Origin: a virus | Strand: one strand, 5' to 3' | IMG/VR virus record: IMGVR_UViG_3300045988_114391 | Location: 1 to 30,863 of that record | DNA length: 30,863 nt | In this document: piece by piece, positions 1-30,863 of the stretch | How the letters are laid out: each line of letters begins with the position of its first letter | Position numbering within the stretch: the stretch's first letter is position 1 | Position numbers and translations under genes: made by a program | Notes under the pieces: generated by a model | Told to the model about the DNA's origin: nothing | The model's input: only the letters and a program-made list of their open reading frames with translations | Databases searched by the model: none

Positions 1-99
1 AGTTTGTCCTTGGTTTTCCTTAGTCTCTTCTTCATCTCCCTTTCCGAAGAGTGTAGGGTACTCAGCGTTGATACTTGCAATAAGTTTACAAAAAAAAAC
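1..99. repeat. Exact 99-nt terminal duplication (1..99 = 30765..30863): circular-closure overlap or short direct terminal repeat
   Basis: Read directly: both ends read agtttgtccttgg...aagtttacaaaaaaaaac. A minus-strand ORF continues in frame across the junction. Confidence 0.9.
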
Positions 100-2912: not shown

Positions 2913-3382
2913 ACATAATTATAACCTGTTTTATATTTGCCATATAAACAAGCTCGAATTGAATAATCACACTTACCTAAAGCTTCCGCAGCTTCTTTAA
3001 TAGAATTATACTTTTTAACTAGAGTTCCGTTAAGATCATATTGAGCTACAGGTTTTGAAAGGTAAGAAGAAATCTTTTTATTTCTAGTTCCATAATTTGT
3101 ATTATATTTCCTAGTACATCATTCTAGATTTTCGACTCTATTGTCAGTCTTATCTTCATTAATATGATTTACTTCTGGTAAATTATATATATTTGGTATA
3201 AATGTTTCAGCTACTAATCTATGTATAGACTTCATTTTAACTTTTCCATTTTTTCATAGTCCTACTGCTAAGTAGTTATTTCTAATAGTAGGTTTAATAA
3301 ATTTATTTGTCCTTATACTATAAACTTCTCCGATATTATTTACTTTATAAAGACCTTCATAATTAGCTATATCCTTCCACAT
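2897..3382 (-). CDS. HNH homing endonuclease (NUMOD4-like N-terminus, HNH core, C-terminal DNA-binding tail); three in-frame TGA
   Basis: MWKDIANYEGLYKVNNIGEVYS..., HRLVAETFIPN, VNHINEDKTDNRVENLE[TGA]CTRKYNTNYGT. Invisible in the standard-code track. TAG stop at 2897. Confidence 0.85.
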
Positions 3383-3621
3383 ATTTTATTTCTAATATTA
3401 CTTATACACCTTGATATGGTAGTATGACTAATTCCCAATATTTTTCCCACTTCTCTATAACTGTGATATTCAGCATATAATATGATTACTGTCTTATCTG
3501 CCTTATTAAGCTCAAGTCATTTTGGATATATACTTAATAGTCTATCATCCATATTTGTAAACATACTATAGTCTATTTCATACTCAGTAAGTAAATCGTC
3601 AATATTAATCTTCCGTTTCAT
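3367..3621 (-). CDS. Sigma-70 region-4-like HTH protein (one in-frame TGA)
   Basis: LELNKADKTVIILYAEYHSYREVGKILGISHTTISRCISNIRNKI resembles the region 4.2 HTH of ECF sigma factors. TAG stop at 3367. Confidence 0.6.
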
Positions 3622-3913
3622 TTAATCAATCCTCCAATTCGTCATTTTGTTGTTCAAGTGGTTCTTTAACAATCTCATAATATTTCTTATAGGTATAGTA
3701 ATATCTACTTGTTTTACTAAACCAATAATTCTTAAATAATCTTGTAATCCAAAATTTCAATTCATTTTTGCTATCAAGCTGATTTAATTTTGGATTTGAA
3801 TACTCTAGTATTTCTACAAAAATCATTTGAACACAGTCATCATCTGCACCAAATTTTTGCTTAAGTTCCATAATAAATGGATAGTACTTTTCTACAATTT
3901 CGTTATTACTCAT
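3605..3913 (-). CDS. Sigma-70 region-2-like protein (track ORF 3626..3913 extended through TGA to TAA at 3605)
   Basis: EKYYPFIMELKQKFGADDDCVQMIFVEILEY...ELKFWITRLFKNYWFSKTSR resembles the ECF sigma region 2 pattern (..D.vQ..f..l.....W...i..N.....R). Its 3-prime end overlaps the start of the region-4-like gene. Confidence 0.5.
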
Positions 3914-4400: not shown

Positions 4401-4824
4401 TTGCTATATAATTACTAAATTCTGTATTTACATCTATCTTAATGGCTTTCTTTAAAGACAACTCTGTTTTTAATGAATAGCCATAAGTTCCTCCAAAATC
4501 TGTTGTAGAACAACCATATTTCATAGAATCCTTTATAAAGGCTTGTTTTATATCTTTAAATATATATACTCCATCATCAAATATTATTACTAATATAGAA
4601 TTATTTCTTGATAGCATATCAAATTTATCCCTATTAATAATAGTGGTTGGATATTTATTAGAATTGAATCTTCTTCTTTTAACTTCAATTATATAATCAA
4701 TTCCATTCCAATTAAATGTTCCATCATACCTGGAATAATCGTCTTTACATCATTCTATATCTATATTAAATTTCTCTTTAAATAGATTCTTTGTAAAGAC
4801 TAAACTTCTTATATCTGTTTTCAT
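4387..4824 (-). CDS. Hypothetical protein with a possible PD-(D/E)xK nuclease motif (one in-frame TGA)
   Basis: MKTDIRSLVFTKNLF...DIE[TGA]CKDDYSRYDGTFNWNGIDYIIEVKRRRF... joins track ORF 4387..4617. The D...EVK arrangement suggests a restriction-endonuclease-like fold. Confidence 0.5.
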
Positions 4825-5063
4825 TATTTTATATTATTAATTTTAAGTGTTAAATCACAATATTCTTCATATAAATTAGATACTTCTTCACTTGCTGGAT
4901 TAACCCACATTACTGAATCTAATTTATGTTTTAATTCTGCTCTTTCTAATCTTAATTCAAATGTTTTATGTTGTCTTTCCTGATAGACTTCATTTACTCT
5001 AAAACCTGCAACAATTGAAGATGCAATTAAAAGACCAACTAAAATTTTATTTATTTTTTTCAT
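4824..5063 (-). CDS. Small N-terminally anchored membrane protein; first gene of the leftward operon
   Basis: MKKINKILVGLLIASSIVAGF followed by a charged helical segment. TAA stop overlaps the next ATG as TAATG. Confidence 0.6.
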   Translation of the reverse strand: MKKINKILVGLLIASSIVAGFRVNEVYQERQHKTFELRLERAELKHKLDSVMWVNPASEEVSNLYEEYCDLTLKINNIK

Positions 5064-5107
5064 AATTTTATTATTTAATATGTTAATACTTGTTTATTAT
5101 TGTACTA

Positions 5108-5140
5108 CAAAGATAATACATTTTTTATTCAATTTCCAAA
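5108..5140 (-). promoter_or_regulatory. Bacteroidota-type promoter for the leftward operon
   Basis: On the minus strand: TTTG (5140..5137), a 21-nt spacer, then TATCTTTG (5115..5108), about 45 nt upstream of the ATG at 5063. Confidence 0.5.
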
Positions 5141-5216
5141 TTTTTTAGGTATTATTTTTATTATTTTCAAAAAAATATTACTATTTGTATTTTTATTATA
5201 TATTAATAAAAACAAT

Positions 5217-5702
5217 ATGATTTACGTAATTAAATTAACTAAAACGAATTTTATTAAAGTTGGTTACACTACTAATATAAGTGGCAGACTAACTGCTTAT
5301 AAAAATACTATTCCAAATGAGATGATAGAATTTTTTATAGCAAAAGAAGGAAATAGAGATGATGAAAATTATTATAGAGATAAATATAGAGCATATAAAA
5401 CTAAGAGTAATTCAGAATGGTTAAAACTTCCAGATGAATTAATTGTAGAGCTATTAGCAGATTTTAAGAGTGCAAATAATATAAAAATAAATAAACAAAG
5501 CAAAAAAGAATGATATAATGAGAATATAGATAAATTAGTAGAATTGTGCTTATCTGGAGTATCATTAAATAGAGCTGCAATTCAATTAAATGCACTAAAT
5601 TGAGACTGAATAAAATATGCTAATCAAAGATACGAAAAAGAGAATGGCAAAAAATTAACAAAACTTTGGGTAAGAAAAATCAAGAAAAGTTTTGCAGAAT
5701 AA
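5217..5702 (+). CDS. T5orf172 (GIY-YIG-related) domain protein with a C-terminal HTH-like extension (three in-frame TGA)
   Basis: MIYVIKLTKTNFIKVGYTTNISGRLTAYKN...SEWLKLPDELI matches the T5orf172 pattern. Reads through TGA at 5511, 5601 and 5607 to TAA at 5700..5702. TGG is also used (KLWV). Confidence 0.75.
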
Positions 5703-5721
5703 AAATTTATTATTATATTTG
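5691..5721 (+). promoter_or_regulatory. Bacteroidota-type promoter P1
   Basis: TTTG (5691..5694), a 19-nt spacer, then TATATTTG (5714..5721). Shares the core ATTATATTTG with P2 and P3. Confidence 0.5.
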
Positions 5722-5769
5722 TAGTGTAAAGAAAAAAATAATTTTTTATTAAAAATAATACCCGAATTA

Positions 5770-5801
5770 TTTGGAAATTTAATTTTTATGTATTATATTT
5801 G
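5770..5801 (+). promoter_or_regulatory. Bacteroidota-type promoter P2
   Basis: TTTG (5770..5773), a 20-nt spacer, then TATATTTG (5794..5801). Confidence 0.5.
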
Positions 5802-5829
5802 CAGTATGAAACTAAAACTAATAATTCTA

Positions 5830-5855
5830 GGCAGGTGAAAGTCCTGCCACTTTTT
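5830..5855 (+). terminator. Intrinsic terminator or attenuator
   Basis: ggcagg-tgaaagt-cctgcc hairpin followed by actttttg. Confidence 0.65.
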
Positions 5856-5864
5856 GAATCTTAC

Positions 5865-5914
5865 TGTCAAGTTTTTTACTCACTTTTAGTAGTAAGAAAA
5901 TAAAAATATTGACA
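5865..5914 (+). repeat. Intergenic 50-bp element, copy S1
   Basis: TGTCAAGTTTTTTACTCAC-ttttagtag-TAAGAAAATAAAAATA-TTGACA. The 18-nt head is identical in S1, S2 and S3, and the ends are inverted (TGTCAA/TTGACA). Confidence 0.8.
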
Positions 5915-5944
5915 AAAACTTTAACTATTTAAATTATTAAAATT

Positions 5945-7666
5945 ATGAAAACATATTTAAACAATTTGATTAATGAGTTGCCAACTAACTGCTTATTTGA
6001 TAAAGGAAAAGTTGGATGTGGAGGAACTTCAATGGCAATTGAATGTAATAAGCCTTATGTTATTTGTGTTCCATTTACTAGCTTAGTTGAGAATAAACTT
6101 CAACAATATCCAAATGAAAGACGTACTGAGAAGATATTTGGAGTTTATGCTGGAGTTACTATTAAAGAGATTAAAGATTACGTAGATAGTGTTAAATGTC
6201 CTAAAATTATTGTTACATATAACTCACTTCCGAAGGTTATTTCTGCAGTTAATACTAAAGAATACAGTTTATTAGTAGATGAATATCATATACTATTTAA
6301 TCAGTATAGCTTTAGAAAGGATGCTATTAAACCTGTTTTAGAGAACTATAAATTATTTAAAGATTTTACATTTATGACTGCAACTCCTCTTGAAGAAGAA
6401 TTCGTATTAGATGAATTAAAAGATTTAGAATTAGTAAAACAAGAATGGGATGATGTTATTGAAACTAAGGTACAAGCCGTTAAATGTAAGAATGTTGAAG
6501 CTTCAACTATTAAATTAATTAATGCTGTTCTTAATAATCAAGTTGAAGGTAATGTTTATATATTTGTAAATTCTGTGGACTTTATAAAGAATCTTATTCA
6601 GAAAGCTAAACTTACAGAAGAGAATACCAGAGTTATATATTCCAAAAACAATAAAACCAAATTATCAATTCATAATTCTACAGTATTAGATGAACCTAAG
6701 AAAATAAATTTATTAACTTCTACAGTATTTGAAGGTTCTGATATTTATGATGAAAATGGAAGAATTGTAGTAGTAAGTGATGCTCAAAAAGCACAAACTC
6801 TTCTTGACATCTCAACTTCAATCCAACAGATTGCTGGCAGAATTAGAAATAGTAAATATTTAAACTGGATAACTCATCTTTACTCAGCAACAAGATATGC
6901 AGATATTAGTTATGAAGACTTTAAAAAGAAGAATATCCAGAATATTGAGGAAACTAAGATTGCTGTAGATGCTTACAATGCAATGCCTGAAGTTGCAAGA
7001 AAGAAACTTAAAGAATTTACATCTGATACTTATATCCAAGTAAATGATGATTTTACATTTACATTTGATCCAAATATGGCTAAGGTAGATATTTTTAACT
7101 TTAAAGTGACAAGAGGTTTATATTCTATTAGAACGAATCTTAATAAAGAATATATAAAGAATGGATTTAAAAAAGTAATAGAATGTGAAGACAACTCTAT
7201 TAAGATTGATTTTGAATCTGATAATAAACCATTTAAAGAACTAATTAAAGAAGTTAGAACAGAATGGGAAAATAAATTTAAACTGAATACTCCACTCTTA
7301 AATGATGCTATTATTAAATATCCTTGGTTACCAGAAGCTATTAGTAAATTAGGATTCGAAAAGATGGCAAGCTTGAAATATTGCATTTCGGATATTAAAG
7401 ATGCTCTATTAAAGAAATCAAATAAAAGTGCAGATAATAAAGCAGCTAAGAAGTTAAATCAATCAATTACTCTTGGAATGTGGTATTCTAACGCTGATAT
7501 TAAAAAGTTTGTTAAAGAAGCTTATGAAATTAGTGATATTACTATTACTCCAAAAGCAACAGAAATTGATAAATATTATGAAGTTAAAAAATGCCAGAAA
7601 AGAGTAAATGGTAAACAAACTGAAGGTTATGTAATTATTAATAAAAAATTTGTATTTAATAAATAA
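5945..7666 (+). CDS. SF2 (DEAD/DEAH-like) helicase; probable replication/early protein
   Basis: Walker-A-like KGKVGCGGTS, LLVDEYH (motif II), FMTATP (motif III), QQIAGRIRN (motif VI). 573 codons with no TGA. TAA stop. Confidence 0.8.
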   Translation: MKTYLNNLINELPTNCLFDKGKVGCGGTSMAIECNKPYVICVPFTSLVENKLQQYPNERRTEKIFGVYAGVTIKEIKDYVDSVKCPKIIVTYNSLPKVISAVNTKEYSLLVDEYHILFNQYSFRKDAIKPVLENYKLFKDFTFMTATPLEEEFVLDELKDLELVKQEWDDVIETKVQAVKCKNVEASTIKLINAVLNNQVEGNVYIFVNSVDFIKNLIQKAKLTEENTRVIYSKNNKTKLSIHNSTVLDEPKKINLLTSTVFEGSDIYDENGRIVVVSDAQKAQTLLDISTSIQQIAGRIRNSKYLNWITHLYSATRYADISYEDFKKKNIQNIEETKIAVDAYNAMPEVARKKLKEFTSDTYIQVNDDFTFTFDPNMAKVDIFNFKVTRGLYSIRTNLNKEYIKNGFKKVIECEDNSIKIDFESDNKPFKELIKEVRTEWENKFKLNTPLLNDAIIKYPWLPEAISKLGFEKMASLKYCISDIKDALLKKSNKSADNKAAKKLNQSITLGMWYSNADIKKFVKEAYEISDITITPKATEIDKYYEVKKCQKRVNGKQTEGYVIINKKFVFNK

Positions 7667-7680
7667 AAATATTATATTTG
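7649..7680 (+). promoter_or_regulatory. Bacteroidota-type promoter P3
   Basis: TTTG (7649..7652), a 20-nt spacer, then TATATTTG (7673..7680). The ATG at 7685 follows 4 nt later. Confidence 0.5.
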
Positions 7681-7684
7681 TGAT

Positions 7685-7846
7685 ATGGAAAGTGATATTA
7701 AAGAAACAATTAAACAAACAGAAGAGTATATTAAAGAATTGGATAAATGAATGCTCGAATGTAAAGAGGCTACTAAAAGATTTGGTGATATTATAGATAA
7801 AGTATTAAAAGATAAAGATTATATGTTTATTTCTAAATTTGATTAA
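7685..7846 (+). CDS. Small hypothetical protein (one in-frame TGA at 7748)
   Basis: MESDIKETIKQTEEYIKELDK[TGA]MLECKEATKRFGDIIDKVLKDKDYMFISKFD, TAA stop. Confidence 0.45.
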
Positions 7847-7848
7847 TT

Positions 7849-7989
7849 ATGGATGATTATTTATTTAAAAAGCTTGAAGAACTAGAATATAGAATAGTTC
7901 AACTAGAAAACCAGCATAGAGGTTTAGTTTGGGAAGAAGTAAAAGAAACACCCAAACCAGAGATTCCTAACGCAACATATACTGATTAA
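7849..7989 (+). CDS. Small hypothetical protein
   Basis: MDDYLFKKLEELEYRIVQLENQHRGLVWEEVKETPKPEIPNATYTD. Tightly packed after the previous gene. TAA stop. Confidence 0.45.
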   Translation: MDDYLFKKLEELEYRIVQLENQHRGLVWEEVKETPKPEIPNATYTD

Positions 7990-7990
7990 T

Positions 7991-8134
7991 ATGAAATACC
8001 AAACCTATAAAGTATGTATAAATGGAGTGTATTATGTATATGTAATACCAGAAAATAGTAAGTTTTTAGTAGACTTACAAACAGGAGATTTAATACCTAA
8101 AGAAGATGATAAATTATTTGAAATGATGGAATAA
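7991..8134 (+). CDS. Small hypothetical protein
   Basis: MKYQTYKVCINGVYYVYVIPENSKFLVDLQTGDLIPKEDDKLFEMME, TAA stop, followed by a terminator. Confidence 0.45.
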   Translation: MKYQTYKVCINGVYYVYVIPENSKFLVDLQTGDLIPKEDDKLFEMME

Positions 8135-8141
8135 ATGAAAA

Positions 8142-8174
8142 TAGGAGGGCATAAACCCTCCTATTTCTTTTTTA
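8142..8174. terminator. Bidirectional intrinsic terminator between convergent operons
   Basis: taggaggg-cataaa-ccctccta hairpin with T-rich tracts on both strands. Lies between the + strand gene end (8134) and the - strand gene end (8175). Confidence 0.8.
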
Positions 8175-8744
8175 TTAAACATATCTTCACTTGAATCCTT
8201 TAGCTGTATTTGCTAATCCACCACATACTCTACTAATAGCTCCTCTATCAGTTCCTACAGATTTGGCTGCTTCTGTGCAACTTTCATACTCTTGAATAAA
8301 ATTACCATCTAAATCATACTGAGCTACTTTACGACATCTTTGTTTGTTATGAGCATCTACTTTAACTCTTCAAGATTCTGGGCAATTATGTTTCTTTCCC
8401 TTATTAGAATTAGACAGTTTCTTCTTTCATTCAGAATTAAATTTGACTCCGTAATTGCCTCCTTCTCCTCCAGGTTTCAAATTTAAACACATAGGATCAG
8501 TGTCCCATTTATCTCCAATTAGTTTGTATTCTAATTTAGATAATTCATCTGCATTAGTGCAAGTTGCCAAAATAATCTTTTGGTATGCATTAGGGAATCT
8601 TTTGTAATAATTAGTAATAATCCTTCCTGATCCTTTATATGGATCTTTATTTATGTCTTTACCTCTATAAATCCTTTTCCCAATATAATACTTGCCTCTT
8701 AATGTACCTGCAGTTAAAATTATTTTATAACAATAGTAAAACAT
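8175..8744 (-). CDS. GIY-YIG homing endonuclease with C-terminal DNA-binding domain (three in-frame TGA)
   Basis: N-terminus YCYKIILTAGTLRGKYYIGKR...KPGGEGG. Reads through TGA at 8427, 8370 and 8187 into ...KKHNCPES[W]RVKVDAHNKQRCRKVAQYDLDGNFIQEYESCTEAAKSVGTDRGAISRVCGGLANTAKGFK[W]RYV, then TAA. Confidence 0.85.
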
Positions 8745-9196
8745 TATATAATAGTAAATTTCTGTCTTCTCTGCAAACCCTCTTTATTCTTCAGTCCTAA
8801 ATGAATTCAACTAGCTATTCCATTTCTAGGTTTCTCATAAATAAGTTGATCAAAATCATACTTTTCAATAGCTTCAGTAATCCAAACCTGAAATTCTTTC
8901 ATTTGGCCGTTACTTGGAATTATATCTGCTGCATACCCTGTTAAATGAGCAGAAGTTGAAGATCCTCCTACTGCTTTATTAAGCTCCTTATTTCTAAAAC
9001 CAGAGGAAATCCTGATGCCTGCGTTACCAAGCTGATTGTCATCACAATACTTTGCCCATCTCTCTCTTATTGGGTCTAAAAGCTTCTCGACCAACTCTAT
9101 CAGGTGCTCTGTTATACTCTCATCTGGAGTGTTATCTATATGCTTAATTGAAGCAGTATCAGATCTTGTTAATTCTTCGAGTGTGAAATACTTCAT
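8744..9196 (-). CDS. Endolysin, peptidase M15 (VanY / L-Ala-D-Glu peptidase-like); one in-frame TGA at 8807
   Basis: FTLEELTRSD...IDNTP...LLDPIRERW...ISSGFRNKELNKAVGGSSTSAHLTGYAADI. After the TGA the frame continues [W]IHLGLKNKEG..., supplying the expected last Zn-ligand His. TAA at 8744. Confidence 0.85.
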
Positions 9197-9357
9197 TATT
9201 TAAGTACATCTTTAATCATAACGTATCTATAAAATAGATGTGAAGCTACACCTATTACAAGTAATACTACAGTAATCCAAAAAGGAATTACTTTAATTAG
9301 TAAACATATCAGCAGAATAATAACTACTGCAATTACATATTTTAACCAATATTTCAT
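9196..9357 (-). CDS. Holin candidate (53 aa, two hydrophobic segments)
   Basis: MKYWLKYVIAVVIILLICLLIKVIPFWITVVLLVIGVASHLFYRYVMIKDVLK. Immediately upstream of the endolysin, joined by TAATG. Confidence 0.5.
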   Translation of the reverse strand: MKYWLKYVIAVVIILLICLLIKVIPFWITVVLLVIGVASHLFYRYVMIKDVLK

Positions 9358-13241: not shown

Positions 13242-13308
13242 AATTTTACATTAGTTTTACATATCTTTTTCTTAAAATATAAACTAATTTACTAATGTAT
13301 TAAAATAA

Positions 13309-13334
13309 TTAAAGGAGACCTAAGCCTCCTTTAA
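13309..13334 (-). terminator. Intrinsic terminator
   Basis: ttaaaggag-acctaagc-ctcctttaa hairpin, followed on the minus strand by ttattttaa. Confidence 0.7.
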
Positions 13335-13384
13335 TGTCAAGTTTTTTACTCACTCAAAGTACTAAGAAAAAATAAAAACTGACA
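13335..13384 (+). repeat. Intergenic 50-bp element, copy S2
   Basis: TGTCAAGTTTTTTACTCAC-tcaaagtac-TAAGAAAAAATAAAAA-CTGACA. It ends 4 nt from the stop codon of the gene at 13389. Confidence 0.8.
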
Positions 13385-13388
13385 AAAT

Positions 13389-15304: not shown

Positions 15305-16420
15305 TTATGCAACTCGATTTATGCTCCAATTCTTTGAAGCGATTAATGATTTCTGTTCATCTGTTAATTTATCATATGCAGTAGATTTGAATGATATACT
15401 TGTATTAGAACTTACTGCTGTGCCAATAGATTCAGCTATAGTTTGTAATGAATCTGTAGATAAATTTGGAGATTGTGCAAAATAAAGAACTCCTCCTTTA
15501 GTTAAACTCTCTCCTAATCCATTTAAAGCTCCTACAGTTACTAATTCTGGACAAGATGCCGCAAAACTAGTACAATCTGTAACAAGATGACAATCTATTT
15601 CTGGTGTAGCTGTTAATCTACTACAAGTACTAAACATATAGCTTATATCTGTAATTCCAGTAAAGGTAAAATTACTTGGAATAGTTGTTAGATATAATGC
15701 TCTATGAAACATATGATTACAATCTCCTTTAAATGGAATATTAATCGTTATATTATCTATATTAGTAGCTCCATCAGCTGTATCTGCAAATGCCCATTTT
15801 GGATCTACTAATACAAGATTTTGAAAATTATTCATTACAGAGAAATCATTATTATCTATTTTTACTCCAATAAATAAATAATTTGCACTTACTTCTTTAG
15901 TAGTTGTAGGTATTTTAACATTAGATAAAGTAGCACTATGTATTGTTTGACCCAAAAATTGAGATTCACTAGACCATCTTCCATATGCTTCATTAAGATT
16001 AGTAATCTCCTGGTTATTTAGATCAAAATGAGATGTTTTAAAAAACCCTCCTTTTCTACTTAAATCTCCACTATTTAACTTTACATCTGCATATGTTTGA
16101 GCAGAACCTATAATACTACAAAGAGGTACACCATCTATATTAAGGGCTAATTCACTTAAATCAGCAGTAAAACTAATTACTGTAGAAGTAAGGCCAGATC
16201 CTCTACCCATTCAATCCCTTTGTATATCATTTATAGTTCCATCATAACTGCTAAATACATAACTACAAGGATCAACTATTGTAGTGCCTTGAGGAACTGG
16301 ATTAGCAACTGTAACTATTTGTGGATTACATATAGGCCAGACTTTGGTACTGCCAACATAAATAGCAGTACCTTGTCTGTCACCTACATAAAATGTCTTT
16401 AAATCATCTCTAATATTCAT
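15305..16420 (-). CDS. Leucine-rich-repeat-like (BspA/DUF285-style) receptor-binding candidate (one in-frame TGA at 16211)
   Basis: Track ORFs 16211..16420 and 15305..16210 abut in frame across a single TGA. Repeats of the type MF..C..L..(I/V)P. C-terminus LTDEQKSLIASKNWSINRVA. Confidence 0.65.
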
Positions 16421-16421
16421 A

Positions 16422-18545
16422 TTATTCTACAATTAAATATTGTGTATTAGGATCTTTAGTTGATAAACCATCATACTCTGATTGAGTTAGAACAGTAATA
16501 GTATTTATTTGAGGTTGGGTTCCAGTTCCAGCTTCAATATAGTTTCCAGCAGGCTGAATACCTAAATCTGATAAACTCTTATTGCCAGATAACTCAACAG
16601 AATTAATCTGAGGTTTATTTGTTAACTGAGTATAATCGGTAGTCCCTCCACCACCAGATATTTCAAGATTACCTTCTCCTAAAATACTTTCACCATTAAT
16701 AGTCTTTATATTAGTACCAGAAACTAGTTGCTCTTGATAACTATGATAACTAGTATCTGCTGATACTCCAGTTGGAGTAATAGTAGTTTGAACTACAGTA
16801 TGATTAGCTGTAGTACTTTCAAAATGGAAAGTAGCTTGAATATTTTCTCCTGAAACAAAACATACTTCTGGAGCTGCTATATCACCATAACCTAGAATAT
16901 TTACATAATAAAGCTCAAATGGTGTTTTATTAGCTATAGCATTCTTAACCGCAGCAAAATCTCCAGAAAGATGAGCAGTGGAATTTATAAATAGAAATGG
17001 AATATTAGAGCCACTTTCAATTTCTATATTACCTTCTCCAAGTAAAGACTGACTATTGATTGTTTTGATATTAGTTCCACTTACAAGTAAATCTTGTTTA
17101 GTAGCCATCTCTTTATCAAGAGCATCAATCTTGTTTCCATCTTCTTCTTGCTTTGTTTTAATAATTGATATGTCTGAAGTATTAGTTGCTACTTGAGTAG
17201 ATAGAGATTCTACCACAGAAGAATCAGCTTTACCAGCAAGTTCTGTTTTTGTTGCATAATCTCCTACAGGCTGTTTAGTAGCAAGCTGCTCATCAACATA
17301 AGTCTTATCTGCTTTACCTGCTAAATCTCCAGAAACCTCTGCTTCACTTACAAAGTTAGAATCATTAGTAAGCTCACTAATTTTAGTTGGAATATCACTC
17401 TTTAAAGCATAATCACCAACTGGTTGGTATCCAGATAAATCCCAATTATCTTCATTAAAAGCTAATGGAGCTTGTGGAGTAAATACACCTTGCTTAGCTG
17501 CAAGTTTGGCATCTACTTCATCTTTAGTATAGCCTTTATTAGTAAGATCAACCTCAGTAACTTTAACAGTCATATTACCATTATTTACTAAGATTGCATT
17601 AATAACTACTAATGCACCATTATCTTGGAAATAATAACCATATAAATCAATAGTTTCAGGATGTTCAATAGTTGCAACAGGAATAACTATAATATCACCT
17701 TTATATGTAATCTGGCAGAATAAATAGAAGTCCAGATTAGTTCTAATAAAGTCATAGATATGTTTCTGTCTTACAGGATCATTCTCATTTAAATTAAGTA
17801 AGAAATGATTCTCAAAAGCAGAGATTACATTATCTATAATAGATATATTCTTTCCTGCTGTAAGCGTTTCCTGTTTTGAAGCTATCTCTTTATTAATAGC
17901 TGTATTTAAAGCATCAATTTCAGCTTTAGTATATTTATCTGCTAATTGTGCATATAGAGGACCATTAACAATACCAGCTTGATTAGTCTCTGTATTATAT
18001 ATTGGAAGTTCAACTGCTTCTCCAGTTTGATTACCAAATACAGGAGCTAAAGTAACTTTAGATGGGACTGATTGAATATTAATGGCAGGTACTATTGAAG
18101 CTGCTCCAGATAATTCAGTTCCATTTAAAGATGGTTTGTTACGAATAGTATTATAATCTGCAGAAATAGTATTCTCTTCAATTACTATACCGTCACCTTG
18201 AACGAGTGTATTTTGCTTTCCAGCAGTGGCTTCAGTAATCTCTGTAGTTACCTCTTCTTTAGTTGGATAGTCAGCTAGTTTCTCAGTAATCTGATTATCA
18301 ACATCTTCAATAGAAGGAATTCCTAATTCTTTAGAAGGAATATTTCCATTTAATTCAACCCCATTGATTTCAGGCTTAAATTGAAGATCTTGATAGTTAC
18401 TTGATCCTAACTGAGAACCATCCATAACCTTAACTTCATCATCCTTGTCAATAACAATAACTTTAGTCACATTTGACTTATCTATTGTTTCGACTTCAAG
18501 GACATTAAGATAGGGAAGAATTGTCTTTTCAGTTTCGTTTGCCAT
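16422..18545 (-). CDS. Long tail fibre protein
   Basis: 707 codons. Repeated (L)VSGTNIKTIN(G/S)(E/Q)S(I/L)LGEGN(I/L)EI and KP.(I/L)N(G/S)(V/T)EL.G units and coiled-coil spacers. No TGA. Confidence 0.8.
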   Translation of the reverse strand: MANETEKTILPYLNVLEVETIDKSNVTKVIVIDKDDEVKVMDGSQLGSSNYQDLQFKPEINGVELNGNIPSKELGIPSIEDVDNQITEKLADYPTKEEVTTEITEATAGKQNTLVQGDGIVIEENTISADYNTIRNKPSLNGTELSGAASIVPAINIQSVPSKVTLAPVFGNQTGEAVELPIYNTETNQAGIVNGPLYAQLADKYTKAEIDALNTAINKEIASKQETLTAGKNISIIDNVISAFENHFLLNLNENDPVRQKHIYDFIRTNLDFYLFCQITYKGDIIVIPVATIEHPETIDLYGYYFQDNGALVVINAILVNNGNMTVKVTEVDLTNKGYTKDEVDAKLAAKQGVFTPQAPLAFNEDNWDLSGYQPVGDYALKSDIPTKISELTNDSNFVSEAEVSGDLAGKADKTYVDEQLATKQPVGDYATKTELAGKADSSVVESLSTQVATNTSDISIIKTKQEEDGNKIDALDKEMATKQDLLVSGTNIKTINSQSLLGEGNIEIESGSNIPFLFINSTAHLSGDFAAVKNAIANKTPFELYYVNILGYGDIAAPEVCFVSGENIQATFHFESTTANHTVVQTTITPTGVSADTSYHSYQEQLVSGTNIKTINGESILGEGNLEISGGGGTTDYTQLTNKPQINSVELSGNKSLSDLGIQPAGNYIEAGTGTQPQINTITVLTQSEYDGLSTKDPNTQYLIVE

Positions 18546-18598
18546 ATTATTTTTCTATAAAATATAAATTATTCATTATGTGGTATATAAACAAAATA

Positions 18599-18626
18599 AG
18601 GGGCAAGTAAATTAATACTCGCCCCT
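18599..18626 (-). terminator. Intrinsic terminator after the tail-tube gene
   Basis: On the minus strand, aggggcgagta-ttaatt-tacttgcccct followed by tattttgttt. Confidence 0.75.
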
Positions 18627-18636
18627 CTTTCTGTTA

Positions 18637-19161
18637 TTAAGCACCTACAACGCTTTGGATAGCTTCTGCAGATAACTCATAAGGATAAGAATCTGAATCT
18701 GTTGAAAGTGTCAGAGTATAAGCATTCTGATCACCTTTAGCAGTACCAGTAACACCCGTACCAGCGGAAGCGCTTACATAATCATCTTTACCTAAGAACC
18801 AATACTTACCATTGCTATCTTCAACAACAACTGCAAGCTGACCAATTGATAAAGCTGCAATCTCTACTCGTTTTGCTGTTTCCATCTTTGTAAATACAAG
18901 AGCAAGCTCATTACTTACATAATTAACACCAGCACTTTCATCTACATTTAAAGTTGAGGTTAGAGAACCAGTAGCCTTTCTAAATTGGTAGTTATACCAT
19001 TTAGCTGAAGACTCAAGAGTAATAGCTGAAATCATATTGCTCTCAGGATCAACCGTTACACTTTTAACATCTGCATACTGGGTAATCCATACCTGTTTGA
19101 TTCCACCCAATGAAGGTTGGCAATCAAGTGTGATTCCTGCGATAGTTATTAAACAAGCCAT
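18637..19161 (-). CDS. Major tail (tube) protein candidate
   Basis: GGIKQVWITQYADVKS...IAALSIGQLAVVVEDSNGKYWFLGKDDYVSASAGTGVTGTAKGDQNAYTLTLS resembles siphovirus tail-tube families. Follows the capsid gene. Confidence 0.6.
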   Translation of the reverse strand: MACLITIAGITLDCQPSLGGIKQVWITQYADVKSVTVDPESNMISAITLESSAKWYNYQFRKATGSLTSTLNVDESAGVNYVSNELALVFTKMETAKRVEIAALSIGQLAVVVEDSNGKYWFLGKDDYVSASAGTGVTGTAKGDQNAYTLTLSTDSDSYPYELSAEAIQSVVGA

Positions 19162-19201
19162 AATTTCAATATCATTTAGAAGTTAATAAAATCTATTGAA
19201 A

Positions 19202-20119
19202 TTAAGCCTTGGCACCTAATACTACTTCGTCAGGGAAAGCAACTTGTACACCAGCGTTAAATTCAATAGCTAATCTGAACTCGCGGAAATCCTGTGAATA
19301 CCACAATTCGAATTTCTCTTCATCGTTCATCATATCTACACCATAGAAGAAGTTCTTGTCTAACTGACCAGCAACAATCTTATCAGTTCCATTAAGACCA
19401 TTAACAGCAATAACCTTAACCTGCGAACCAGGAAGATAAATCTCACCATCAAGGCTTTCTCCGCTATAGTGGAAATAGTTCTTCTCAACAAGTTCGTTTA
19501 CGAACTTACGGAACATATCAGCACCAACAAGAATAGAAGCACCATCAAGAACCTTCTCAGGAATTGCATTATAAACTGCCATAATGTCAGTATAGGCAGA
19601 TGTTCCAGCAATTGTTACATCAACAACACCATCAGCAGCACCATCAGCAGCACCAAGGATCTTTAACAGACCATCAAAATACTTCAGGTTATTAGTTTCT
19701 GAAGCCGTATCACCCTGCCAGATAGCTATCTCAATAGCCTCTTTTACGTTCTCTACAACAGCATTTACGAAATCCTCTTCAAAAGGAAGAGTCTTCTGAC
19801 CAGCGGCTACCTTAACTGCATACTGAGTCCAGTATTTCAGCATAGCCTTATCGCAATATGCCATATTAATCTTAATATTACCAGTCTTAAGAATTCTCTG
19901 AGAAAGAGTCTGAGTTCCAGACTCATCCCAACCACAAGTAAGACCATCACCGAACTGAACATCGGTAGATAACAGGTTAAGAGCAGCATCAGTTTTAATA
20001 TCTGTCTGAAGATTAAATAAACTTGCACTCTTAGCTTTTAAAACCGCTTCCTTAATAAGAGGGAGACGTCTTTGCTCCACATAAGCAGGAAGAGTTGTCA
20101 TTACAGGACTATTTGCCAT
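19202..20119 (-). CDS. Major capsid protein (HK97-fold type)
   Basis: 305 aa directly after the protease and scaffold genes. Sequence pattern (IWQGDT...YFDGLLK..., C-terminal FELWYSQDFREFRLAIEFNAGVQVAFPD) resembles HK97-like capsid families. Confidence 0.75.
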   Translation of the reverse strand: MANSPVMTTLPAYVEQRRLPLIKEAVLKAKSASLFNLQTDIKTDAALNLLSTDVQFGDGLTCGWDESGTQTLSQRILKTGNIKINMAYCDKAMLKYWTQYAVKVAAGQKTLPFEEDFVNAVVENVKEAIEIAIWQGDTASETNNLKYFDGLLKILGAADGAADGVVDVTIAGTSAYTDIMAVYNAIPEKVLDGASILVGADMFRKFVNELVEKNYFHYSGESLDGEIYLPGSQVKVIAVNGLNGTDKIVAGQLDKNFFYGVDMMNDEEKFELWYSQDFREFRLAIEFNAGVQVAFPDEVVLGAKA

Positions 20120-20140
20120 AATTATTTAAAATTTTATAAA

Positions 20141-20746
20141 TTAACCAATAAAGTTTTTAAGCTTTCTATCTATTTCTGCTATCCCACTTATAGGAGCAGT
20201 TGTTTTATTTTCAAGTGTTTCCTCTGCTGAAAAAGCAGCACTCATTTTGCTCATCTTTTCAACCGTCTTTTCTGTAGCTTCAGATTTACCCTCTAATTCA
20301 GCTACTTTCTTAACAAGCTTATCTACAATATCGTAAAGCTCATTAATTTCGCGATGAATAGCGTCGATTGCATCAGTCTCAGTTTCTTTAACACCGTCTG
20401 TTTCAACAGCAGGATCAGTAACTTCCTCAGCTTTTACTTTCTTAGTTCCACAAGCAGCATCAACCTCAACAGTTCTCATACCCTCTTCAGGATCAACCTC
20501 AGCTTTAGGATCAGTAATGGACTCTACTTTACCGTCTTTAACAACAATCGTTTTGCCATCTTCGGTAACATACTCACCATCAGCAGCAGGTGCATATTCG
20601 CCATTTTCATCAGCTACATAAACATCCATACCTTCTCTCAGATCCTCATCTGAATCCCAAGTAAGCACAGCCTTGTCAGTTTTAACATCACTGAACTTTG
20701 CAAGCATCTTAGCTAACTCAAGTTTAATTTTTGTGAATTTACTCAT
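20141..20746 (-). CDS. Scaffolding protein candidate
   Basis: Highly acidic, helical 201-aa protein between the protease and capsid genes. Confidence 0.6.
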   Translation of the reverse strand: MSKFTKIKLELAKMLAKFSDVKTDKAVLTWDSDEDLREGMDVYVADENGEYAPAADGEYVTEDGKTIVVKDGKVESITDPKAEVDPEEGMRTVEVDAACGTKKVKAEEVTDPAVETDGVKETETDAIDAIHREINELYDIVDKLVKKVAELEGKSEATEKTVEKMSKMSAAFSAEETLENKTTAPISGIAEIDRKLKNFIG

Positions 20747-20752
20747 AATTAA

Positions 20753-21346
20753 TTAATGTTTAACTCTTTTTATTTTTCTCAACATTTTTTGAATCTCTTT
20801 AAGTTCCTCATATTCATCAGATTGTCTTTCTAAAGTAAACAATCCCTCAATAGAGAACCCTTTAAACTTGCCAGCTTTAATTGCATCCCATATAACAGGA
20901 TTATTTACTTTATAAGTAGCAAATAATGAACCATCTGGACAATCAGCAAATTCAACTGGATTAATTCCTCTATCTATATCTTTAATATATAGTTCTTGAA
21001 GAATTATTCCAGGAATTACTGAATCTTCCAAATGTTCAATATTTACATCAGTAGTTCTCTTATCATACATCATTTTTTCAGCCATTAAACGGAGAGTTTC
21101 TTTATCATATTGAATATAATATTCTCCGTTTTTACTATCCCGTCTAAATATAGGTATATCACATACCATTAAACAAGAAGTAACTATATGTTTTTCTTCA
21201 TCCATCGAGAACTTCTGAGATTCCCCAAAAGCAAGCCAATTAACTTGGGTTGCAGGTTTACTGGTCAATGCTACGAACTCTATTCCATCACAATCATCAG
21301 CAATAATTGCTTGATATAATGGAAGATCATTATACATTTTTTCCAT
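20753..21346 (-). CDS. XkdF-like putative prohead protease
   Basis: VNIEHLEDSVIPGIILQELYI...GSLFATYKVNNPVIWDAIKAGKFKGFSIEG matches the XkdF-type domain pattern as I recall it. Lies upstream of the scaffold and capsid genes. Confidence 0.6.
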   Translation of the reverse strand: MEKMYNDLPLYQAIIADDCDGIEFVALTSKPATQVNWLAFGESQKFSMDEEKHIVTSCLMVCDIPIFRRDSKNGEYYIQYDKETLRLMAEKMMYDKRTTDVNIEHLEDSVIPGIILQELYIKDIDRGINPVEFADCPDGSLFATYKVNNPVIWDAIKAGKFKGFSIEGLFTLERQSDEYEELKEIQKMLRKIKRVKH

Positions 21347-21425
21347 TTTTTATTAATATATAAGCTATTTTAAAAATGTAATATTGTTACAATCTTTTAT
21401 TTTTATATATTTATATACTATCAAA

Positions 21426-21474
21426 TGTCAAGTTTTTTACTCAAATTTGTATCTAAGATAAATAAATTTTGACA
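21426..21474 (+). repeat. Intergenic element, copy S3
   Basis: TGTCAAGTTTTTTACTCAA-atttgtatc-TAAGATAAATAAATT-TTGACA. Confidence 0.8.
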
Positions 21475-21477
21475 TAG

Positions 21478-21521
21478 CACTACTATATAAGCACTGATAA
21501 TCAGCAACTTACATAGTAGTG
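21478..21521. other. Stem-loop between element copies S3 and S3b
   Basis: cactactat (21478..21486) pairs with atagtagtg (21513..21521). The loop holds a small ctga-taa-tcag hairpin. Confidence 0.6.
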
Positions 21522-21540
21522 TGTCATAAATTTTACTCAC
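21522..21540 (+). repeat. Half copy (head only) of the intergenic element, S3b
   Basis: TGTCATAAATTTTACTCAC versus the head TGTCAAGTTTTTTACTCAC. It abuts the stop codon at 21542. Confidence 0.6.
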
Positions 21541-21541
21541 T

Positions 21542-27300: not shown

Positions 27301-27741
27301 AAAGTATTGTAAATCAGCTAGAGTTCTAATAGTGCCATCTTCTTTATATTTAAGTCCATAAAAGAAATCTCCCAATCCTCCATATAAAGTAATATTATAA
27401 GTAATAACTGCTTGCTTTATAGAGATGCTATTTAACTGCATATATCCTGATTCAACTAAATATCCATTATTATAGATTCCAAAGTCAACTCTTTTTGAAG
27501 GATCAAAATATACGCCAGAGAAATTACCTTCTTTTATATGGAGAAATCTATCTAACTTATAAATCTCTCCAAAAATCTTATTATTGTTTTTGTCTCCTGG
27601 AATGCTTATAGTCTTACTGAATGAATTTTTTACTATTGTTGGATTCTGAAAATCTTCTACAGTATAAGTCATTGGTAATGATATGCCTTCAGAACAATGT
27701 ACTTCTTTTCCTGCAATAAATAATTTAATATTCTTTCTCAT
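24301..27741 (-). CDS. Large tail/baseplate-type structural protein, 1146 aa (six in-frame TGA) with a C-terminal Ig/BACON-like module
   Basis: Six track ORFs (26860..27741, 26155..26763, 25804..26142, 25144..25797, 24742..25005, 24301..24576) are in one frame and are linked only by TGA. Segment ITPESGQPGETELTVTYNENT...RSFYFSL is Ig-like. The TAA stop overlaps the next ATG. Confidence 0.65.
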
Positions 27742-30536: not shown

Positions 30537-30863
30537 TTAATGTTTTCTTTTTCATTCTTCAATCTGTCTATTTTCTTCATTAGCTTTATCTATAACATAG
30601 CATATAATGTTAAGAAACTCTTTAATCTGCATATCATATATCTGATGTCAATTAAATCTGGTAACTTCACTTACCTTATCTATTCAGATAATTCAGCTTC
30701 ATTTTTGAGTAAAAGGATTAATCGTCTCGTCTGTATTAAGCTCTTCAGAAGTTTCCTCCTTTCCAGTTTGTCCTTGGTTTTCCTTAGTCTCTTCTTCATC
30801 TCCCTTTCCGAAGAGTGTAGGGTACTCAGCGTTGATACTTGCAATAAGTTTACAAAAAAAAAC
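30537..30863 (-). CDS. 3-prime part of the junction-spanning gene, read in the -1 frame after the T9 run (five in-frame TGA)
   Basis: ...ASINAEYPTLFGKGDEEETKENQGQTGKEETSEELNTDETINPFTQK[W]S[W]II[W]IDKVSEVTRFN[W]HQIYDMQIKEFLNIICYVIDKANEENRQIEE[W]KRKH, TAA at 30537. About 105 codons free of TAA/TAG in very AT-rich DNA. Confidence 0.5.
30765..30863. repeat. Second copy of the 99-nt terminal duplication
   Basis: Identical to 1..99. Confidence 0.9.

Follow-up and report, generated by a model that had tools for sequence, protein, structure and literature searches.

Do the expression signals of this phage and its genetic code point to the same host? The first-pass annotation had seen promoters and translation starts of Bacteroidota type in a genome that reads TGA as tryptophan (code 4), and held that the host signals and the code disagree. 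They do point in different directions, since the promoters and starts are Bacteroidota-style, the code is code 4, and Bacteroidota is not named in the literature consulted on lineages with UGA = Trp, in line with the earlier remark that no member of this phylum is known to have this assignment natively. The disagreement is not, however, unexplained, because a recoding already documented for gut phages fits it.

The window, i.e., the whole stretch of 30,863 nt that was analysed, is the entire genome, 30,764 bp long, of an uncultured tailed gut phage. The assembly is circularly closed: positions 1..99 recur at 30765-30863 with 100% identity (repeat family D2), and the gene that runs off position 1 apparently resumes at the opposite end of the window. 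The GC content is 29%, ~92% of the sequence is coding, and a complete complement of genes for virion, packaging and lysis is encoded. The early control region is positions 5064-8174. The rightward and leftward transcription units converge and would both stop at one two-way terminator, a terminator-like hairpin of 11-13 pairs at 8139-8166 that was picked up by a terminator scan on both strands.

The genome is written in code 4

Under code 4, open reading frames of 100 aa or more take up 92% of the window; under code 11 they take up 60%. There are 49 in-frame TGA codons, distributed over 21 of the 35 genes; the stops are 31 TAA and 3 TAG, and no gene ends in TGA. Substitutions among relatives led us to reject a glycine reading of TGA (code 25): of 202 aligned codons that differ from a TGA of the window, 183 are TGG and just 2 GGA, and in the reverse exchange 214 TGG positions of the window read TGA in relatives. 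An HNH endonuclease has one such TGA within its NLEW stretch. The code in use is code 4, with TGA as Trp and not Gly. TGA accounts for 38% of the Trp codons (other NNA/NNG pairs are 68-97% A); in the Mycoplasma phage MAV1 the share is 77%. The base after the codon is T in 8 of 49 cases for TGA and in 21 of 81 for TGG, so that, as raw counts, T is somewhat rarer after TGA.

The use of TGA differs sharply from gene to gene. Its family-wide share of Trp codons is 1/94 in g12, the helicase-like gene, 1/175 in the capsid protein, 2/114 in g28 and 0/14 in g10, the last figure resting on one Trp codon per locus (14 loci). The divergent replication-side unit of a distant relative, L130, is also TGA-free. 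TGA is common in the other genes across the family, and most of the genes outside the helicase-like, major virion and g10 group depend on a Trp reading of TGA. Since TGA is also present in genes directly behind the host-type promoters described below (g13, g11 and g9), a simple scheme of standard code early and recoding late does not fit. Among the relatives, L035 and L130 read TGA as sense (code 4), L084 and L079 use it as a stop, and L036 and L043 lack the codon altogether. Because TGA is under-used, its use varies among relatives and a peptidoglycan hydrolase is carried, the recoding looks like a property of the phage lineage and not of the host code.

The phage family is abundant in public metagenomes, with thousands of capsid homologues, and many of the public contigs with the capsid gene stand alone at 29-33 kb. 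Public gene calls for the family are apparently shortened at TGA codons.

Promoter-like sites of the early control region

Four sites had been reported to fit the Bacteroides primary-sigma consensus, and a scan for TTTG-N19-21-TAnnTTTG recovered these same four, and no others, in the 30,863 bases. On the minus strand, the leftward site P_L (5108..5140) consists of TTTG, a 21-nt spacer and TATCTTTG, and sits 45 nt ahead of g10, the first leftward gene. On the plus strand are P_R1 (5691..5721), whose -33 box falls on the final codons of g11; P_R2 (5770..5801), which in relatives precedes a variable small-ORF slot; and a site for g13 (7649..7680), where the final G of the -7 box is followed 5 nt later by the g13 ATG. 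All are exact matches; P_R1 and P_R2 are conserved in relatives, and the g13 site in 10 related loci. The three plus-strand sites have ATTATATTTG in common, as had been noticed, and the extended consensus common to the sites is TTTGGAAATT...TGTwkTATmTTTG. With the minus-strand site opposed to the rightward ones, the divergent arrangement proposed at first reading is borne out.

The comparison with shuffled sequence that had been suggested gave 4 matches vs 0.97 expected (dinucleotide shuffles; 2 of 100 reach 4). The chance expectation of a first-order Markov model was 0.90, with 1% of simulations reaching 4, and p for the whole-window excess is about 0.01-0.02. None of the four matches lies wholly within a gene: each is at a gene boundary and aimed at the next gene on its own strand. 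Two are fully intergenic vs 0.07 expected in the 1.67 kb of intergenic DNA (p = 0.003). Sigma-70-type promoter matches are fewer in the window than in shuffles, and no primary-sigma-type site was found in the 22-kb late region. A TTGACA-17-AATTAT match upstream of the helicase gene was rejected, being not conserved in relatives, and a candidate late motif, TTATATTTTA, was not above chance (4 matches vs 1.6; 13 of 100 shuffles reach 4).

The motif recurs in related phages. In 21 loci centred on the helicase-like gene (146 kb of early region) there are 65 matches with 30 distinct sequences; they occupy the homologous three or four places, with both boxes kept and different spacers. No match was found in the 627 kb of late region from 36 capsid-centred loci. 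The minus-strand site at the P_L position is kept in 19 of the 21 related loci, again with varying spacers, and a divergent motif pair is also present in L130. As controls, Bacteroides phage B40-8 has 8 matches vs 1.12 expected (0 of 300 simulated sequences reach 8), and MAV1 has 1 vs 1.03 expected, i.e., no enrichment. A strict scan of the injection-system and prophage loci described below gave 0-1 matches each, too few to inform.

Translation starts

The reported lack of Shine-Dalgarno (SD) motifs agrees with our count: SD-like tetramers are found upstream of only 4 of 35 starts (11%), and the numbers are 5 of 46 for B40-8 and 10 of 15 (67%) for MAV1. The upstream sequence is typically ...aaatt or ataatt before ATG, as claimed, and 74% of the starts have A at position -3. 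This SD-poor, -3 A pattern is the one published for Bacteroides (PMC7366714). Both the promoter sites and the scarcity of SD motifs are real and, judged from sequence, look functional.

Genes of the control region and its neighbours

The first leftward gene, g10 (4824..5063, minus strand; a code-4 ORF call), encodes 79 aa and has no TGA; its N-terminus looks hydrophobic by eye, and the protein had no family match. Between the divergent promoters lies g11 (5217..5702, plus strand), which encodes a T5orf172/MUG113-domain protein (Pfam T5orf172, E = 2.3e-6) and has three in-frame TGA codons. It appears to be an accessory insertion, since several relatives have only 1-100 nt between the leftward site and the first rightward one, which leaves no room for g11.

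Downstream of P_R2 and upstream of g12, the terminator scan revealed a hairpin on the plus strand (GGCAGG-N7-CCTGCC followed by a T run; 5830..5856). It is kept in relatives, and two relatives have a different hairpin in its place. The stretch from 5802 to this hairpin was considered as a conserved ORF or RNA and rejected; it is a variable small-gene slot in relatives, with an ordinary fold in the window (z = -1.9). A 57-nt quasi-palindromic repeat (TGTCAAGTTTTTTACTCAC...TTGACA; 5861..5917, plus strand) follows, one of three copies where 0 are expected; these repeats (families D4-D6) occur in some relatives and are absent from others.

The 573-aa product of g12 (5945..7666, plus strand; no TGA) is modelled as an SF2 helicase-fold ATPase with an extra C-terminal domain (AlphaFold, mean pLDDT 81.5). 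Its Foldseek matches, at E about 1e-8, include Mfd, RecQ-like and DEAD-box proteins and the HSV-1 origin-binding protein; a sequence search of the PDB gave no match, and only the fold search was informative. The protein probably acts in replication. A 99%-identical homologue of it gave no contig on exact look-up. Behind the fourth promoter-like site is g13 (7685..7846, plus strand; an ORF call of 53 aa), whose sole Trp codon, codon 22, is TGA here and in 19 of 19 related loci. Two small ORFs of 46 and 47 aa in the code-4 listing (7849..8134, plus strand) end the rightward unit.

On the other side of the two-way terminator, g15 (8744..9196, minus strand) encodes a Peptidase_M15_3 peptidoglycan hydrolase (Pfam E = 1.7e-13), a likely endolysin. 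Its one in-frame TGA is codon 130, and many public gene calls stop short at 127-129 aa. Leftwards of g10, g7 and g6 are overlapping small genes (3367..3913, minus strand). The g6 product (3367-3621) has a helix-turn-helix resembling sigma-70 region 4 (Pfam HTH_50, 1.2e-7; Sigma70_r4, 8.7e-5, below its cut-off; PHROG sigma-factor families, E about 7e-4), so that g6 is a candidate late-transcription factor. The Trp codon of g6 is TGA in 13 of 14 relatives.

Two further assignments made at first reading fared less well. The BACON modules in two large tail proteins are weakly supported, by sub-threshold Pfam matches of 17-19 bits against a cut-off of 25: BACON_2 at 18.8 and BACON at 17.1 bits in the C-terminus of the 24301-27741 protein, and BACON at 17.3 bits in the middle of the 27744-29924 protein. 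The DUF285/leucine-rich-repeat character given to the fibre protein at 15305-16420 was not recovered, with no match in the whole protein, nor in its C-terminal 255 residues at E up to 10.

Decoding machinery

ARAGORN found no tRNA gene in this complete genome or in some 60 related loci. Rfam searches at E up to 1 gave no match to a tRNA or a hidden suppressor RNA, and no release factor or Trp-tRNA synthetase family was matched in the genome or in the about 60 related loci. Our best guess is that UGA is read by the tRNA-Trp of the host after release factor 2 has been countered.

Host clues

From the promoters, the SD-less starts, the relatives of the endolysin and the contexts in which relatives are found, we infer that the host belongs to the Bacteroidota; no direct link of phage to host came to light. 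The nearest homologues of g15 on long contigs of non-phage size lie in contractile-injection-system loci flanked by Mfa-like fimbrillin and HU-HIG genes. We take these loci to be probably of Bacteroidales, from the general distribution of the flanking Pfam families. A capsid-profile scan of a genome collection hit mostly phage-sized contigs binned into mixed taxa; these related contigs are found in both Bacteroidales and Firmicutes metagenome-assembled genomes, some of them with Lachnospiraceae, Faecalimonas or Coprococcus. Only two capsid relatives lie in long chromosomal contigs, of Agriterribacter and Mucilaginibacter, both Bacteroidota. A g12 homologue was found in a TAG-recoded prophage, next to a glutamine synthetase that clusters with proteins named as Lentimicrobium sp.

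In one 148-kb IMG/VR contig, this phage type is linked to additional code-4 phage DNA. It was rejected as a source of host flank, as its upstream 9 kb are code-4 phage DNA; no tRNA was found in the 39 kb examined, and the contig may be a chimeric assembly.

A probable case of a recoded phage in a standard-code host

Gut phages with TGA reassigned to Trp have been predicted to infect Bacteroidetes or Firmicutes hosts of standard code, and only 15-35% of the code-4 phages on such hosts carry a suppressor tRNA (Borges et al., bioRxiv 10.1101/2021.08.26.457843). With several indirect lines leading to a Bacteroidota host, the conflict between signals and code matches what is known of these alternatively coded gut phages. 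The explanation that we consider likely joins a control region of Bacteroidota type, a start by the host polymerase, SD-less translation, and a TGA = Trp assignment of the phage lineage in a standard-code host. The host RNA polymerase would start the infection from the primary-sigma-type sites; the leftward and two rightward sites flank what appears to be the inserted accessory gene, and the fourth precedes a small gene. Translation would initiate without SD pairing, as in Bacteroidota, and the phage lineage would have reassigned TGA to Trp while the host retains the standard code. The motifs with their conservation, the Trp meaning of TGA, the lack of tRNA genes and the uneven spread of TGA over the genes are shown by the sequences; the host phylum, the timing of expression and the way in which TGA is decoded are what we infer in this scheme.

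A bolder version, to which we give a low but appreciable probability, is that this ~30-kb phage family switches a standard-code Bacteroidota cell to UGA = Trp by means of an early product, with no suppressor tRNA and with TGA codons as timers. A TGA-free early product would neutralise release factor 2 or alter the host tRNA-Trp, the candidates being the 79-aa g10 product behind P_L and the helicase-fold g12 product behind the rightward sites. The host tRNA-Trp(CCA) would then read UGA, and the invariant TGA codons of g13 and g6 would act as translational timers that delay late expression until the switch.

Alternative explanations

It seems to us very improbable that the host itself reads UGA as Trp and shares its code with the phage, whether it is a Mollicute or a code-4 gut lineage yet to be described, perhaps within Bacteroidota. 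Such a host would agree with a complete genome and relatives without tRNA genes, and with TGA in 21 of 35 genes, some of them just behind early promoters; cultured code-4 phages are reported to infect mostly Mycoplasma or Spiroplasma, and new code-4 gut lineages, e.g., in the Eggerthellaceae, are still appearing in the literature. However, TGA makes up 38% of Trp codons at 29% GC, compared with 77% in MAV1, the capsid, g28 and helicase-like genes are almost free of it family-wide, and some relatives use it as a stop or do without it. SD use (11% vs 67% in MAV1) and a promoter type of Bacteroidota, a phylum not named as code 4 in the literature, also speak against it. For a Mollicute in particular, the M15 peptidoglycan hydrolase argues against wall-less cells, and a search of 50,697 GenBank phage records, Mollicute phages included, gave no match to the capsid protein.

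The motif matches could instead have arisen incidentally, from AT-rich intergenic DNA or from a repeated module, in a phage of a Firmicute with sigma-70-type promoters. The modest whole-window excess (4 vs about 1) would allow this, the extended similarity TTTGGAAATT... could mark the sites as copies of one module, several related phage-sized contigs fall in bins of Lachnospiraceae, Faecalimonas or Coprococcus, and recoded phages of Firmicutes are known from the literature. Against this stand the boxes and spacing, which are kept while the spacers have diverged into 30 variants, and the position of every match at a gene boundary in the correct orientation, with none in the 627 kb of late region of the relatives. 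Sigma-70-type matches are rarer than in shuffles, SD-like motifs are all but lacking, the B40-8 and MAV1 controls behaved as expected, and in our judgement the binning of 30-kb phage contigs is unreliable; we hold this explanation to be highly unlikely. Nor do we give more than a slight chance to a helper, i.e., a co-resident code-4 phage or host-borne element that supplies a UGA suppressor tRNA. The lack of tRNA genes in the phage family and the 148-kb contig that links this phage type to other code-4 phage DNA would be in its favour, but that contig has no tRNA in the 39 kb examined and is possibly chimeric, many capsid-bearing public contigs stand alone at 29-33 kb, and the genome has complete virion, packaging and lysis genes of its own.

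Comparison with known systems

The sites resemble the Bacteroides primary-sigma promoters (PMC7366714) in the -33 TTTG, the -7 TAnnTTTG, the 19-21 nt between them, the location ahead of genes and the lack of sigma-70-type boxes. They differ in that the present sites, known from sequence, share an extended consensus, and that two of them have an ATG 5 nt past the -7 box, which implies very short or absent leaders; in B. thetaiotaomicron, 5′ UTRs under 10 nt are rare (about 3.7%; PMC7366714). With MAV1, a phage of a native code-4 host, the genome shares TGA = Trp, a GC content of about 29% and the lack of tRNA genes (none are annotated in MAV1). Unlike in MAV1, TGA is the minority Trp codon, SD-like sequences are rare, a peptidoglycan hydrolase is present and the Bacteroidota motif is enriched.

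The genome also resembles the phages of Borges et al., in which TGA also aligns with Trp, the GC content is low, TGA stops are lost in close standard-code relatives, a replication-side gene is in standard code, and the predicted host phylum is Bacteroidetes; small genomes of 22-34 kb occur among their clades (Garnet, Amethyst, Topaz and others). Unlike those phages, the present family lacks a suppressor tRNA, release factor or tRNA synthetase, avoids TGA in the capsid and adjoining virion genes where theirs concentrate it in structural genes, and has TGA in genes right behind the host-type early promoters. The mismatch between promoters and code is already documented for gut phages, but in this family no suppressor tRNA is there to account for it. 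Host-type promoters and start sites provide a clue to the host that is independent of the genetic code, and the apparent paradox resolves into a clean example in which the code probably belongs to the phage lineage. Being compact, abundant and tRNA-less, with a sharp gene-by-gene split in TGA use, the family offers a tractable system in which to learn how suppressor-less recoded phages read TGA as Trp.

Genome organization and gene content

The first 99 bases of the window are identical to the last 99, and the gene that leaves it at position 1 appears to resume at the opposite end. On these two grounds we take the assembly to be circular and closed, with a length of 30,764 bp. Its GC content is ~29%, and under code 4 it carries ~35 genes in two units, a short rightward one (5217-8134) and a long leftward one that runs from 5063 round the circle to 8175; a two-way terminator-like hairpin (8139-8166) lies where they converge. 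Recognisable genes code for the terminase large subunit, portal, XkdF-type protease, capsid protein, a Peptidase_M15_3 hydrolase (8744-9196) and several HNH, GIY-YIG/NUMOD and T5orf172 proteins. Homing-endonuclease-like or T5orf172 genes number five in this 30.8-kb genome (2897-3382, 3906-4400, 5217-5702, 8175-8744 and 12576-13241), each with in-frame TGA, and the T5orf172 gene is apparently missing from several relatives. The first-pass annotation had placed BACON modules in two large tail proteins. BACON or BACON_2 was indeed the best match in both, but all matches were sub-threshold. Its DUF285/LRR assignment for the protein encoded at 15305-16420 found no support, and no Pfam match was obtained.

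Capsid homologues were counted in thousands in metagenomes, many of them on stand-alone 29-33 kb contigs, and none was found among 50,697 GenBank phage records. This phage type also fills the last ~30 kb of the 148,631-bp IMG/VR contig 3300045988_175865 (loci L124 and L029), in which the preceding 9 kb is again code-4 phage DNA, with long ORFs under code 4 only; this contig could be an assembly chimera or represent a larger element.

A 57-nt quasi-palindromic repeat (TGTCAAGTTTTTTACTCAC...TTGACA) was present in three copies, with 0 expected, on the + strand at 5861-5917, 13331-13387 and 21426-21466, and a degenerate copy was detected at 21522-21543. Every copy is intergenic and in one common orientation, and some close relatives have the repeat while others lack it. 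Between the tape-measure-like and protease-like genes, the minus-strand RNA of 21455-21541 forms a long, very stable hairpin (for the 199-nt stretch 21347-21545, fold z = -6.4, a stability that none of 200 shuffles matched). The fold is not a cloverleaf.

Probable Bacteroidota-type promoters and translation starts

The motif TTTG-N19-21-TAnnTTTG (-33 box TTTG, -7 box TAnnTTTG), for which the Bacteroidota primary-sigma consensus was taken as summarised in PMC7366714, has exactly four matches in the window, 5691-5721, 5770-5801 and 7649-7680 on the + strand and 5140-5108 on the - strand, as first reported. Dinucleotide shuffles gave 0.97 expected matches, with 2 of 100 reaching four, and a first-order Markov model gave 0.90, with four reached in 1%; by itself, the count is only modestly significant. 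The position of the sites and their conservation carry more weight. No site lies wholly within a gene, though the genome is ~92% coding, and each one faces the next gene on its own strand. In 21 loci of relatives centred on the helicase-like gene, 65 matches with 30 distinct sequences were found at the three or four corresponding positions, with boxes and spacing conserved and spacer sequences variable. A distant code-4 relative (L130, portal 63% identical) has a divergent motif pair, back to back. The 36 capsid-centred loci of relatives (627 kb; these loci are not independent) gave no match. As a positive control, the Bacteroides fragilis phage B40-8 gave 8 matches against 1.12 expected, a number reached by none of 300 simulated sequences; the negative control, Mycoplasma phage MAV1, gave 1 match against 1.03 expected, within an annotated gene. 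In the window, sigma-70-type matches were below the shuffle level (79 vs 107 and 68 vs 80). From the placement and conservation of the sequences, more than from their number, we conclude that the four sites are probably genuine promoters of the Bacteroidota primary-sigma class, with predicted start sites. The sequence TTATATTTTA, which resembles the -7 box but has a final T for G, lies immediately 5′ of three leftward gene starts (2561-2570, 13273-13282 and 18558-18567, - strand); it is not enriched over chance in the window (4 matches vs 1.6 expected).

The reported absence of Shine-Dalgarno (SD) motifs was borne out: SD-like tetramers precede just 4 of the 35 window starts; the counts for B40-8 and MAV1 were 5 of 46 and 10 of 15, respectively. 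An A occupies position -3 at 74% of the window starts, and the pattern published for Bacteroidetes includes enrichment of A at this position (PMC7366714). At two sites, 5770-5801 and 7649-7680, an ATG follows 5 nt past the -7 box. Because of this short distance, the mRNA of the gene at 7685 may be leaderless or nearly so.

Proposed working of the early region

Host RNA polymerase would initiate leftward at 5140-5108 and rightward at 5691-5721 and 5770-5801. In several relatives, 1-100 nt separate the leftward site from the first rightward one; in the window the T5orf172 gene (5217-5702) stands between them. The second rightward site of relatives precedes a variable small gene, and after this gene comes a terminator-like hairpin that is conserved; the window has an empty slot here and its hairpin at 5830-5856. 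The helicase-like gene downstream of the hairpin (5945-7666) codes for an SF2 two-RecA fold with an additional C-terminal domain, probably a replication protein. The fourth site (7649-7680) would drive the small gene at 7685. No motif-type site was found in the 22-kb late region of the window; the late genes need read-through or another promoter class. A candidate late-transcription factor is encoded at 3367-3621; this protein has a resemblance to sigma-70 region 4.

TGA is a tryptophan codon used unevenly among genes

Under code 4, ORFs of 100 aa or longer span 92% of the window, compared with 60% under code 11, and the window genes end in TAA (31) or TAG (3), with no TGA stop. Where relatives differ at window-TGA positions, 183 of 202 aligned codons were TGG and only 2 were GGA, and the reverse change, from TGG in the window to TGA in relatives, was seen 214 times. 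This interchange identifies TGA as Trp, not Gly. The TGA share of Trp codons is 38% in the window (49/130) and 77% in MAV1; in all other A/G-ending codon pairs of the window, 68-97% end in A.

Across the phage family, TGA use varies sharply between genes. It accounts for 1 of 94 Trp codons in the helicase-like gene, 1 of 175 in the capsid gene, 2 of 114 in gene g28, none of 47 in a 53-aa gene (9196-9357) and none of 14 in the first leftward gene (4824-5063; thin evidence, from a single Trp codon in 14 loci), and for 30-100% in most remaining genes. In the window, the helicase-like gene and five genes at 16422-21346 have TGA at 0 of 16 Trp codons and the rest at 49 of 114 (Fisher p = 5e-4, the grouping being post hoc). 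TGA is also found in genes immediately behind the early promoters. The sole Trp codon of the 53-aa gene at 7685-7846 is TGA in all 19 relatives, and that of the sigma-region-4-like gene (3367-3621) in 13 of 14. A full-length product of either gene needs TGA read-through.

TGA is a stop in the relatives L084 and L079, and a sense codon in the window clade, L035 and L130. In the fetched parts of L036 and L043 (IMG/VR contigs 3300029905_000019 and 3300037154_000081; capsids 57-68% identical) TGA was absent both in frame and as a stop, and only TAA and TAG terminate genes, which looks like an intermediate state with the codon unassigned. Many public M15 peptidase records are 127-129 aa long vs 150, with an in-frame TGA at codon 130; since these lengths fit gene calls that end there, the family appears to be mis-annotated under code 11.

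No tRNA gene was found in the complete genome or in 60 related loci, Rfam gave no tRNA match, and no release-factor or synthetase family was matched among the proteins scanned. A recent preprint lists UGA-to-Trp reassignment for four bacterial phyla, Bacteroidota not included, and describes some code-4 organisms without a tRNA-Trp(UCA) gene, so that tRNA-Trp(CCA) may read UGA. Our preferred guess is therefore that a phage factor would counter release factor 2 and tRNA-Trp(CCA) would then read the codon.

Host assignment

Several indirect lines agree on a host within the Bacteroidota. One such line is the promoter type combined with starts that lack SD motifs, and the M15 peptidoglycan hydrolase counts against wall-less Mollicutes. 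The nearest homologues of this hydrolase on long contigs (52-54% identical) lie within contractile-injection-system loci that have Mfa-like fimbrillin and HU-HIG genes on their flanks, families that we take to be characteristic of Bacteroidales. In such gene clusters on metagenome contigs of 37-150 kb (L133-L138), close M15 homologues stand beside VgrG-like and PAAR genes and, in some cases, gp25-like ones. In long chromosomal contigs, capsid relatives were found only in Agriterribacter and Mucilaginibacter. A TAG-recoded (code 15) prophage on L139 (ENA ERZ28598220 scaffold_71, 132 kb), which adjoins a tyrosine integrase, encodes a homologue with 45% identity to the helicase-like protein; the surrounding contig uses the standard code, and its glutamine synthetase falls in a cluster with proteins labelled Lentimicrobium sp., a Bacteroidales member. 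That phage-sized relatives have been binned into Firmicutes as well as Bacteroidales genomes counts against this reading; we judge such binning to be unreliable.

Relation to recoded gut phages

The conflict between expression signals and genetic code raised by the first-pass annotation is real, but it is already explained in kind by recoded gut phages. Borges et al. described code-4 and code-15 gut phages whose predicted hosts are standard-code Bacteroidetes and Firmicutes, with near relatives in standard code, loss of the stop codon ahead of recoding, and standard code retained in replication genes. A TGA suppressor tRNA was detected in just 35% of their code-4 genomes, and Cook et al. found a suppressor tRNA in 15%. 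The earlier observation is confirmed, and its interpretation is partly supported. The phage probably belongs with the recoded gut phages already described; its main points of note are the apparently tRNA-free decoding and the sharp gene-by-gene TGA pattern.
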